Below the pieces are notes generated by a model. The model had not been told where the DNA came from, made no database searches, and worked only from the letters and a program-made list of their open reading frames with translations. A stretch of DNA of 64,000 bases, from the NCBI GenBank assembly GCA_965214675.1, contig OZ243969.1, positions 1,666,482 through 1,730,481 of the forward strand, written 5' to 3'. Below are positions 17,434 to 18,913 of this stretch, in pieces. This DNA is from Gammaproteobacteria bacterium. Its GTDB lineage: Bacteria > Pseudomonadota > Gammaproteobacteria > UBA4575. Position 1 is the stretch's first letter. Every line of letters starts with the position of its first letter. The translations under genes were made by a program, and so were the position numbers.

Positions 17434-17829
17434 TCAATAATCCTCCATATAAAGTGACAACTGGATGTCCAGCCACTGGTCCAGCTTCTTGAGTGATTCC
17501 ATCTGTACGAACAACCGTTTCCCCGCGTCCATCAGCCGCGCGGGTATTTCGTTGTACTGGCGGGGGATGTAACCGAGCTTGTGCCCCCCTGTCGTCAGGA
17601 CTTCGATAGCGAACTTGTCATGCACATTTTTAGGCTCGCGGCGCAAACTGAAGCGCTGTCCGGAAGACAGGCTTTCAACCACATTTTCCGCCTCGTAGTA
17701 ATGGGTTCCCGCAACGTGCATCCGTGCAAGCATGATGTCCTGTGCAAAGGGTATACGAAGAGCTTTTCCGGTAACGCTTTTCTGGAGAAGCTGTTCAACG
17801 AGTTCGGTTTTCTGAAGCGCCTTGTTCAT
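17434..17829 (-). CDS. HIRAN-domain protein
   Basis: HIRAN-like core MHVAGTHYYEAENV...LSLRREPKNVHDKFAIEV...GHKLGYIPRQYNEIPARLMDAG. Its ATG at 17829 sits immediately 3' of the stop of the J-domain gene, which suggests translational coupling. The track ORF start at 17949 is an upstream alternative start inside the neighbouring gene. Confidence 0.5.
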   Translation of the reverse strand: MNKALQKTELVEQLLQKSVTGKALRIPFAQDIMLARMHVAGTHYYEAENVVESLSSGQRFSLRREPKNVHDKFAIEVLTTGGHKLGYIPRQYNEIPARLMDAGKRLFVQMESLKKLDQWLDIQLSLYMEDY

Positions 17830-17831
17830 AT

Positions 17832-18671
17832 TCAGTGGGTGGGGCCAGAAGGCGGAAGCAGCATTTCGTACCGACCCTGCAATTCCACCCGATGTTGCTT
17901 GCGACCGGCAATCTCCTGCTGTAGCTCTTCCTGCTTGGCCTGAATCCACTGGGAGTCTTCAAGTTTTTCCCGATAAGAGAACGGAGGCTTGGTGAGTATC
18001 TTGGCAAGCCGATTGCTCTGTTTTTTGACCTGGGAATTCAGTCGTTTGATTTCCGAGTTGAAATCGTCGGATGCCTTCAGCAGTGGCTTCCCGGAAAGAT
18101 CCAGCGTTTCGGCCAAGGCTTTAAGAAGATCAAGATCTCCCTCTCGATAGGCGTGCTGCAACGTGGACCAGATCTGCTTCCCGCGCTCCGATTTTTCCCC
18201 ACCCACGTCGGGGTGGTAATGCTGGCAAATCCGGCGGTACAGGCGCTTCAGTTCACGGTAATGCTCCGGCTTCATCCATTTCACGGTGTCCAACAGGCCG
18301 ATGGAGTGGCGCAGCTCGCGCTCCTTCTCCTTGAGCGCAACGTGAAATTTCTCAAACTCTATACGGATTTCCTCATTGAGGCGTTCAAGCCGTTCAGCGG
18401 TAACGGTTTTGCCGCGGTTAATGTCCGCTTGCAAGATCGAGATGCGCCGCCTCAGTTCCGCCAATTCGACGTCCAGAAGAAATAGCTCATGTTCCAGGTA
18501 TCCAATATCACGGTTGTACTTGGCCATGAGCAGGTCTCGTTCGTTGTAAAGCAGAGATTCATGTTCTTCTATGAGCGCACTGAGCTTCTTGCGCAGCGCA
18601 TCGATCTCCTCGAGTTTGGCAGACACGGAAGGGTGCAAGATTAGATCACTACGTTCTTCGCTGACACCCAC
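17832..18671 (-). CDS. Coiled-coil J-domain (DnaJ-like) protein
   Basis: Central J-domain with HPD motif (YRELKRLYRRICQHYHPDVGGEKSERGKQIWSTLQHAYREGDLDLL), flanked by heptad-rich coiled-coil sequence. Confidence 0.55.
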   Translation of the reverse strand: MGVSEERSDLILHPSVSAKLEEIDALRKKLSALIEEHESLLYNERDLLMAKYNRDIGYLEHELFLLDVELAELRRRISILQADINRGKTVTAERLERLNEEIRIEFEKFHVALKEKERELRHSIGLLDTVKWMKPEHYRELKRLYRRICQHYHPDVGGEKSERGKQIWSTLQHAYREGDLDLLKALAETLDLSGKPLLKASDDFNSEIKRLNSQVKKQSNRLAKILTKPPFSYREKLEDSQWIQAKQEELQQEIAGRKQHRVELQGRYEMLLPPSGPTH

Positions 18672-18837
18672 TACTTACATCTCCCTTAGCGTACAGGTCA
18701 CTTCACTATCCGATGTCTCAGTACCAGGATGTGAGTCATCAGGTAAAGGATATTCAACGTGTCAGTTTTCCGTGAACGCTTACAATACAGTCTTGCTTGT
18801 GCCGATACTTGGCTCTTGAAATGCATATTGAATAAAT

Positions 18838-18913
18838 TGGTGCCGGAGAGGTGATTCGAACACCCGACCTACTGATTACGAATCAGTTGCTCTACCGACT
18901 GAGCTACCCCGGC
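18838..18913 (-). tRNA. tRNA-Thr (anticodon CGU)
   Basis: A cloverleaf was folded by hand. The acceptor pairs GCCGGGG with CTCCGGC. It has U8, D-arm GCTC/GAGC, anticodon stem ACTGA/TCAGT with loop TTCGTAA, T-arm GGGTG-TTCGAAT-CACCT, and a genomically encoded CCA. Confidence 0.85.

Follow-up and report, generated by a model that had tools for sequence, protein, structure and literature searches.

A mobile gene pair that joins a predicted J-domain protein to a stand-alone HIRAN protein: a possible Hsp70 co-chaperone aimed at DNA 3′ ends

Our study examined a 64,000-nucleotide stretch of a Gammaproteobacteria bacterium genome (GCA_965214675.1, contig OZ243969.1, positions 1,666,482 to 1,730,481 of the forward strand; the whole of this stretch is referred to as the window) and found that two translationally coupled genes beside a tRNA-Thr gene encode a 279-amino-acid (aa) protein with a predicted J-domain and a 131-aa HIRAN protein. 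The pair is a conserved module and not a core gene pair. The reading that we rank first, and hold tentatively at a probability just short of even, is that the two proteins form a two-subunit specialised Hsp70 co-chaperone aimed at DNA 3′ ends, and that the pair belongs to the conflict/defence gene pool as a small, mobile accessory module. A role in repair only was ranked next, a restriction-modification accessory and a toxin–antitoxin pair were placed equal after it, and a chance or housekeeping pair was placed last. Specialised J-domain proteins are the cell's way of aiming Hsp70 at particular places, and a bacterial J-protein aimed at DNA 3′ ends via a separate HIRAN subunit is undescribed in the searchable literature.

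Read along the minus strand, thiO (19066-20169) is followed by tRNA-Thr(CGU), the 279-aa J gene, the 131-aa HIRAN gene and nirB (14789-17329), and the locus has these features:

17832-18671, minus strand: J-domain protein gene, 279 aa, GTG start; open reading frame (ORF) encoding a helical scaffold, the J-domain and a further helical scaffold.
18102-18296, minus strand: predicted J-domain, residues ~126-190; family profile against the PDB, hhalign, Pfam in relatives and AlphaFold2 helices.
18207-18215, minus strand: HPD motif, H153-P154-D155; invariant in the alignment.
17434-17829, minus strand: HIRAN protein gene, 131 aa, with its ATG 2 nt past the upstream stop; ORF and sequence.
17446-17724, minus strand: HIRAN domain, residues 36-128; Pfam PF08797, model positions 5-93 of 96.
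18838-18913, minus strand: tRNA-Thr(CGU), CCA encoded, 3′ end toward the pair; ARAGORN, and Rfam tRNA at 71.7 bits.
18827-18839, no strand assigned: left direct-repeat copy, ATTGAATAAATTG on the plus strand; the last two CCA bases and 11 nt of 3′ flank.
17333-17345, no strand assigned: right direct-repeat copy, 3 nt ahead of the nirB ATG (17329).
18672-18826, minus strand: upstream spacer from the repeat to the J-gene start, including the GGGAG ribosome-binding site; read from sequence.

The 279-aa ORF contains CQHYHPDVGGEKS, and a first-pass annotation of the window had described a canonical J-domain with this HPD motif, embedded in coiled coil; the ORF, its coordinates and the motif all proved correct. 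HPD is the signature that stimulates the Hsp70 ATPase; all 22 aligned homologues share it, as do 144 of 147 family representatives. The GTG start is considered sound: a GGGAG stands 10 nt ahead of it, and this codon is ATG in the two closest relatives. The J-domain proposed in the first-pass annotation was supported by a profile of 22 family members, which ranked approximately 27 J-domain structures in the PDB before anything else (best match DnaJ 6jzb, E=5e-5, with query residues 126-187 aligned to J-domain residues 13-72). It was likewise supported by hhalign against seven canonical J-domains entered by hand (96.8 % probability, over 22 columns only, covering helix II and HPD), and by four full-length relatives whose scores of 39.4, 33.5, 29.8 and 29.6 bits exceed the 27.8-bit Pfam cut-off. 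AlphaFold2 predicted an all-helical 279-aa protein (pLDDT 86.6, pTM 0.74) with a first helix of 72 residues and, further along, helices at residues 135-152, 162-176 and 180-189, the HPD lying in the loop between 135-152 and 162-176, so that the helices are placed as a J fold would require. As the PDB profile, hhalign, relatives above the cut-off, the HPD and the AlphaFold2 helices represent five independent lines, the 279-aa protein is assigned a J-domain with an intact HPD. Neither domain search nor predicted structure revealed DnaJ C-terminal domains in it.

Assignment of the smaller protein to HIRAN is secure. It matched Pfam PF08797 at 70.8 bits against a cut-off of 24.7 (E=8.4e-20), and its best PDB match was the stand-alone bacterial HIRAN lp_0118 (3k2y; E=1e-7), with the HIRAN domain of HLTF (4s0n; E=4e-4) next, which bears out the HIRAN-like motif noticed earlier. 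Its length, first counted as 132 aa, is 131 aa, or 132 codons with the stop. Eukaryotic HIRAN recognises 3′ ends at stalled forks, as in HLTF, where the residues that hold the DNA 3′ end are Y72, Y93, D94 and N90/N91. Alignment to HLTF showed that Y44/Y45, N68 and D71 are retained in the window protein. The 131-aa protein also has a conserved N-terminal extension (PF..DI), and an exact-sequence look-up returned no record for it.

The J gene ends at a TGA (17834-17832) and the HIRAN gene begins at an ATG (17829), leaving a 2-nt gap. The translational coupling noted in the first-pass annotation is real; the junction in relatives is a 4-nt overlap or a gap of 1-9 nt. When family hidden Markov models (HMMs) were used to search for both partners, a HIRAN ORF came immediately next wherever a locus had the full-length J-like gene and sequence beyond it (approximately 21 non-redundant loci), and the pairing held at 94 % down to 24 % identity, from Gammaproteobacteria to gut Firmicutes. 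Translational coupling as tight as this suggests that both proteins are synthesised together and work in a complex.

The family is large and uncurated. Approximately 50 homologous clusters were found for the J-like protein and 72 for HIRAN, nearly all of the latter 131-133 aa in length, and contigs of equal length in the two sets were an early sign of co-occurrence. A metagenome scan returned relatives at 24-30 % identity. The J-family comprised 286 representatives at E≤1e-30 and 1,454 at E≤1e-10, mostly of 260-300 aa, and the Firmicutes branch alone held >1,000 clusters. Source annotations were generic or wrong ('molecular chaperone DnaJ', 'methyl-accepting chemotaxis protein'). NCBIfam has no family for either protein, no family model for the J-protein exists in Pfam, NCBIfam or PADLOC, and on the pair itself these three resources returned J and HIRAN domains only. 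The size of the family and its spread across phyla were not part of the first-pass annotation.

The pair in the window is bracketed by a repeat that derives from the end of the tRNA gene. The first-pass annotation had placed the pair at the 3′ side of tRNA-Thr(CGU), as a candidate island insertion, and had proposed a search for direct repeats of the tRNA 3′ end. The J gene begins 166 nt past that end, and the search was positive. The 13-bp repeat is identical at 13/13 positions and has just two copies in 64 kb, with 2 mismatches tolerated in the repeat search; by a rough hand estimate, chance would give ~0.05 exact 13-mer pairs over the 2.5 kb that were searched. The insert between the copies is 1,481 bp and holds the two genes only. 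Both copies are present in two close relatives (loci from other genomes are given by handle, here L087 and L105), and the left copy is kept in L003, L087 and L105, the L003 contig stopping short of the distal copy. In L105 the distal copy reads CTCCGGCA+ATTTATTCAAT, 19 nt in total: the final 8 nt of the acceptor strand of the tRNA, less its CCA, and the 11-nt flank. Site-specific insertion at the 3′ end of a tRNA gene classically leaves a bracketing repeat of this kind.

Excision by recombination between the repeats would put the nirB ATG 14 nt past the tRNA CCA end, and the excised state would have no room for a nirB promoter, since only these 14 nt would separate the two; nirB has an alternative ATG at codon 9 besides the annotated start. 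The spacer upstream of the J gene is conserved in the closest relatives only and is absent from other contexts of the pair. A promoter and terminator scan of 17200-19000 did not rise above background and offered no usable signal for the minus strand, and an Rfam scan of the locus returned the tRNA alone and no other RNA family.

The host is uncultured, and the nearest genome is the metagenome-assembled genome APA_bin_76, in which ThiO is 95 % identical and the arrangement of thiO, tRNA and J gene is shared. The pair is found in each of the close relatives L003, L087 and L105, and the closest relatives keep it in the same place ahead of nirB. In L087 and L105 a urease operon abuts a tRNA fragment made up of the 3′ 56 nt; the spacer known from the window, the pair and nirB come next. 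This makes the tRNA a recurrent breakpoint, and a breakpoint inside the tRNA gene suggests that this tRNA was also the target of a different element or rearrangement. The fragment, which abuts the ureD stop, lies at 2004-2059 in L087 and at ~6780-6835 in L105, equivalent to window positions 18838-18893, and ARAGORN called no tRNA on L087. The more distant L004 (ThiO 56 % identical) has thiO and tRNA-Thr, then unrelated genes, and no nirB. A clean empty site was not found among L003, L087 and L105, in which the pair is present, and L004, in which unrelated genes follow.

GC content was considered as island evidence and dropped. The pair has a GC content of 52.7 %, compared to 57.7 % for nirB and 61.2 % for thiO, so the lower value noted in the first-pass annotation stands; however, within the window, whose mean is 56.2 % (standard deviation 2.8), it ranks at the 9th percentile and is not diagnostic, because equally low-GC stretches (38.8-41.2, 47.3-50.4 and 52.4-55.1 kb; 50-54 %) encode housekeeping proteins (GpsA, M23 peptidase, IleRS, RibF, MurJ, ProB, Obg and IspB). 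GC varies inside the core genome of this organism. A tRNA-Pro(CGG) lies at 54885-54961, among the low-GC core stretches.

Nucleotide similarity between the contexts of the pair is confined to both coding sequences (window 18676-17433). The first-pass annotation had asked whether both genes are conserved at this position in all relatives, and the pair was instead found in different places. As the similarity is limited to the two coding sequences, the neighbours vary and a tRNA-end repeat brackets the insert, the pair is read as mobile. The neighbourhoods in other genomes include the following:

L002: hsdR-hsdM-hsdS directly upstream on the same strand, hsdS overlapping the J start by 4 nt; Argonaute downstream; restriction-modification confirmed by PADLOC.
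L108-111: type III restriction-modification directly upstream (PADLOC-confirmed), in a human-gut organism.
L106: integrase, insertion sequence (IS) elements and a type III restriction endonuclease 6 kb from the pair (PADLOC).
L107: AbiEii upstream, Uma2 downstream.
L085: IS481, IS3 and IS5 transposases on both sides.
L089: 337-aa and 212-aa ORFs downstream, which by eye look like an Rpn-type nuclease and a serine recombinase.
L083: convergent phosphatase and ADP-ribosylglycohydrolase gene.
L001 and L086: upstream 567-585-aa protein with a nitroreductase domain; PanK, BirA and GlnS on the other side.

Defence or mobile-element neighbours were seen in L002, L106, L107, L108-111, L085, L089 and L086. 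For the species of L108-111, the J-like protein was indexed in 203 blocks of the assembly collection. The family is common in human-gut bacteria, and there it stands beside a type III restriction system.

These neighbourhoods bear on a reading in which the pair is a restriction-modification accessory that senses DNA ends or damage, with DnaK disassembling or restraining translocating type I/III enzymes on host DNA (restriction alleviation), or that acts on the ends made by restriction. The position directly downstream of type I genes, on the same strand and with the hsdS overlap in L002, and directly downstream of type III genes in L108-111, counts in its favour; these two arrangements span two phyla, and the type III endonuclease near the pair in L106 adds a third case. 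However, most loci, the window included, have no restriction-modification genes nearby, and such genes abound in defence islands, to the point that adjacency could reflect nothing more than island co-location. We regard this reading as quite unlikely.

An equally low probability was given to a toxin–antitoxin or addiction pair, in which a toxic HIRAN protein would block 3′ ends and the J-protein, via DnaK, would neutralise it or control its stability, or in which these roles would be reversed. The genes are small, translationally coupled and mobile, and toxin–antitoxin or Abi genes occur nearby in some loci (VapB among the L002 neighbours, AbiEii in L107). The window HIRAN protein also matched the PADLOC candidate PDC-M03B (E=7.5e-18, HIRAN part only, positions 133-214 of a 250-residue model), and PDC-M03 is presumably a HipA–HIRAN cluster, which is a guess of ours. 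Stand-alone HIRAN proteins are predicted to be antitoxins of HipA-like kinases (HipI) in PMC11706625, which cites Gerdes 2021. Despite this, a known toxin fold is absent, HIRAN has no catalytic activity, the 279-aa upstream protein is large for an antitoxin, and the ADP-ribosylglycohydrolase fusions described below are ill-suited to a simple toxin–antitoxin logic. Furthermore, in L112 and L113 (7827-8230; two NCBI assemblies) the HIRAN gene lies in two overlapping ORF fragments, either by frameshift or by sequencing error, beside an intact J-like gene, and no locus has the converse pattern that would be expected if one partner were toxic alone.

A further line of evidence, which went beyond the first-pass annotation, connects the pair to ADP-ribose. 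In Firmicutes-type loci an N-terminal ADP-ribosylglycohydrolase (ARG) is often fused to the J-scaffold (for example, NCBI MCR4763779.1 of a Lachnospiraceae bacterium), and two different subfamilies of the hydrolase are involved. The fusions occur as 811-aa proteins, which also carry DUF6508, and as 684-691-aa proteins. The hydrolase encoded next to the proteobacterial pair in L083 matches the hydrolase domain of the 684-aa fusion (E=3.6e-63), and other relatives have different, unrecognised N-terminal domains on the J-scaffold, a pattern that fits a constant scaffold with variable heads. The hydrolase domain is absent from the window version and from all proteobacterial versions of the J-protein, and no ADP-ribosyltransferase partner was seen in the hydrolase-fused loci. 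ARG-centric conflict systems have been described in PMC9503650 (Iyer, Burroughs, Anantharaman and Aravind 2022, section 3.8), often with a rhodanese-type phosphatase, and with dedicated chaperone components and a two-gene ARPP-HIRAN link; the same paper reads ARG without a transferase partner as countering externally imposed ADP-ribosylation, and its main text makes no mention of a J-domain or DnaJ component. The hydrolase fusions, together with the L083 hydrolase neighbour, link the pair to these systems. A literature match for HIRAN with ADP-ribosylglycohydrolase turned out to be the surname Hirano and was rejected.

The same evidence can be read without immunity, with the pair as an accessory to the repair of DNA damage or ADP-ribosylation that spreads horizontally because it is useful. 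The HIRAN protein would recognise the 3′ end of a nascent strand that a lesion, such as an ADP-ribosylated base, has stalled; the hydrolase, fused or in trans, would remove the adduct, and DnaK, brought in by the J-domain, would clear stalled proteins. This is consistent with the recognition of stalled-fork 3′ ends by eukaryotic HIRAN and the retention of key residues in the window protein, with two independent ADP-ribosylglycohydrolase fusions and one adjacency, with the absence of an effector domain, and with the housekeeping character of several neighbourhoods. The fused loci without an ADP-ribosyltransferase also show the pattern that PMC9503650 reads as acting on external ADP-ribosylation. 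However, the window and all proteobacterial versions lack the hydrolase domain, the pair recurs beside restriction-modification, prokaryotic Argonaute and Abi genes, and its distribution is patchy, with a location that shifts between relatives. Molecularly this explanation overlaps with the DNA-end-targeted co-chaperone and differs from it mainly in biological role; we consider it a minority possibility.

For the preferred reading, a co-chaperone of the conflict/defence gene pool, the following sequence of events is proposed, built on two domains whose biochemical activities are well understood. The HIRAN domain of the small subunit would bind free 3′-OH single-stranded DNA ends, and the helical scaffold of the large subunit would display the J-domain. 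The HPD would then recruit ATP-bound DnaK and trigger hydrolysis, upon which DnaK would clamp onto, or remodel, a protein sitting at the DNA end. The role may be to sense or resolve DNA-end or ADP-ribosylation-linked events in conflict with phages or other mobile elements. A conflict-type role is suggested because restriction-modification, Argonaute, AbiEii, integrase and IS neighbours recur and because the Firmicutes forms carry hydrolase fusions. The first-pass annotation had proposed fork or damage sensing, or a small defence or addiction module that hijacks host Hsp70; the latter is compatible with the restriction-modification, Argonaute, AbiEii and integrase/IS neighbourhoods, the former is an equally tenable reading, and the earlier interpretation as a whole was partly supported. 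Its remark that the pair is not a recognised housekeeping combination also holds, as no published description of the J and HIRAN pair was found in the searchable literature, although the 2006 HIRAN paper (PMID 16627993) may mention the neighbourhood.

A bolder form of this proposal, which we consider doubtful, is that the pair represents a previously unrecognised class of chaperone-coupled DNA-end sensor in bacterial immunity, in which HIRAN would detect the 3′ ends of DNA that is invading or damaged and the J-domain would tie DnaK to that site. DnaK might then block the replication or packaging proteins of a phage, or might either license or hold back restriction enzymes encoded nearby, and in the hydrolase-fused forms the complex might strip ADP-ribose from DNA at stalled forks. 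If true, a defence system would for the first time be seen to have a dedicated Hsp70-targeting module, and stand-alone bacterial HIRAN proteins would gain a defined function, which would also be a first. Should the mechanism itself hold, it would join phage defence islands, chaperones in immunity and the reversal of DNA and protein ADP-ribosylation, and it would give stand-alone bacterial HIRAN proteins a testable function.

Several results weigh against a DNA-end-targeted co-chaperone of the defence pool. The window protein itself scored 19.2 bits (E=1.3e-3) with Pfam DnaJ PF00226, under the 27.8-bit cut-off; the two HMM checks proposed in the first-pass annotation were divided, with HIRAN well above its threshold and DnaJ below its own in the window protein but passing in relatives. 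Foldseek searches of the PDB returned coiled-coil and helical-bundle noise for the full AlphaFold2 model (best E 0.18) and no significant J-domain match for a model of residues 118-200 (pLDDT 68; best E 1.7), although the J-domains 4j7z, 2dn9 and 2lgw were among the top matches (E≥1.7, TM 0.3-0.45, from a low-confidence model). In the HIRAN protein, the position of the second stacking Tyr (Y93 of HLTF) is occupied by H70. The proposed interaction of the two proteins is read from gene order only. Pfam, NCBIfam and PADLOC revealed no known toxin, effector or nuclease domain in the pair, which is unusual for a defence system; no PADLOC model matches the J-protein, and the PADLOC match of the HIRAN protein is at domain level only. 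Between the repeats, ORFs and domain search showed no integrase or other mobility gene, and phmmer found no ADP-ribosylglycohydrolase ORF in the 64-kb window. Searches of phage and plasmid collections by tblastn, with the window protein and a Firmicutes homologue, gave no match save one generic DnaJ, and a scan of viral contigs gave two weak J-only matches without HIRAN and nothing else. Lastly, L088, L093, L098 and L114/115 have plain housekeeping neighbours (sugar metabolism in L088; oadB and dnaX-recR in L114/115), and the association with defence genes was judged by eye on approximately 14 contexts.

Part of this evidence would suit the plainest explanation, that of an ordinary, vertically inherited, lineage-specific pair whose 'J-domain' is a chance HPD in a coiled coil. 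The window protein is under the Pfam cut-off and the structure search gave no significant match, the closest relatives hold the pair at the same place before nirB, and its GC content is inside the normal range of the genome. Against this, the J-domain is backed consistently and specifically by profile and transitive evidence, the contexts in other genomes are unrelated, a repeat derived from the tRNA end brackets the pair, and a distant relative has thiO and tRNA-Thr but other genes downstream. This explanation is largely refuted, and we regard it as very improbable.

A number of neighbouring genes were noted alongside these results. The nitroreductase-domain protein (L001 4279-5982, plus strand; L086 6233-7990, plus strand) ends 10-18 nt before the J gene on the same strand and may be a third operon member in the L001/L086 lineages; its nitroreductase domain is C-terminal only, the N-terminal 450 residues have no assignment, and no PADLOC match was found for it. 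A tRNA-Thr(UGU) is also near the pair in these two loci (L086 9445-9520, minus strand, convergent, ~200 nt off; L001 10504-10579, minus strand); no tRNA-end repeats were found in L086 and L001, and this nearness may be coincidence. An AAA_14/DUF4143 ATPase is possibly a recurrent neighbour, being immediately upstream of the pair in the Firmicutes-type L112 and L113 (5655-6881, plus strand) and ~5 kb upstream, before the type I restriction-modification genes, in L002 (1-999, plus strand). The L002 Argonaute is seemingly split by a DDE transposase (10121-11494) into pieces at 7330-9537 (minus strand) and 11507-12334 (minus strand), of which a 275-aa Schlafen/AlbA_2-like piece corresponds to positions 3-273, and a 735-aa PIWI piece to positions 383-1121, of PADLOC PDLC02394.

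Among known systems, the nearest functional analogue of the proposed co-chaperone is CbpA/CbpM. CbpA is an E. coli DnaJ homologue that binds curved DNA itself and has DnaJ-type C-terminal substrate-binding domains, and CbpM is a co-transcribed modulator, an inhibitor that binds the CbpA J-domain; DnaJ and DnaK also act on the lambda O-P-DnaB complex at ori-lambda. The likeness is that of a two-gene operon in which a J-protein is tied to DNA binding and has a small partner, and the CbpA J-domains 2kqx and 3ucs were among the top PDB matches of the family profile (E=1.3e-4). In the present pair, however, the J-domain lies inside a helical scaffold and the putative DNA binding would be carried out by a separate HIRAN protein. 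HLTF and Rad5 have the HIRAN domain in common with the pair, and the 3′-OH-contacting Asp and the YY pair align; in HLTF, however, HIRAN is fused to a SNF2 motor and a RING domain and the protein reverses forks, whereas here a stand-alone 131-aa HIRAN protein has a J-domain partner, and one stacking Tyr is replaced by His.

Similarity to the ARG-centric systems of PMC9503650 is seen in the phosphatase and hydrolase gene beside the pair in L083 and in the hydrolase-J fusions of Firmicutes, whereas the window pair has no hydrolase, phosphatase, Nudix/WYL regulator or ARPP. Operons of HipA-like kinases with HIRAN (PMC11706625) resemble the pair in having a stand-alone HIRAN protein in a mobile cluster of two to three genes with a predicted defence or toxin–antitoxin function, but the partner there is a kinase toxin and here a J-protein. 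Host DnaJ takes part in phage sensing by bNACHT25, according to PMC12169576, which likewise places Hsp70 co-chaperone machinery in anti-phage immunity; in that account, however, a housekeeping DnaJ aids an NLR-like sensor, whereas here a dedicated mobile J-protein has its own HIRAN partner. The pair differs from all of these; it is classed as a specialised J-domain protein with a dedicated, putative targeting subunit, and it is outside every described defence family.

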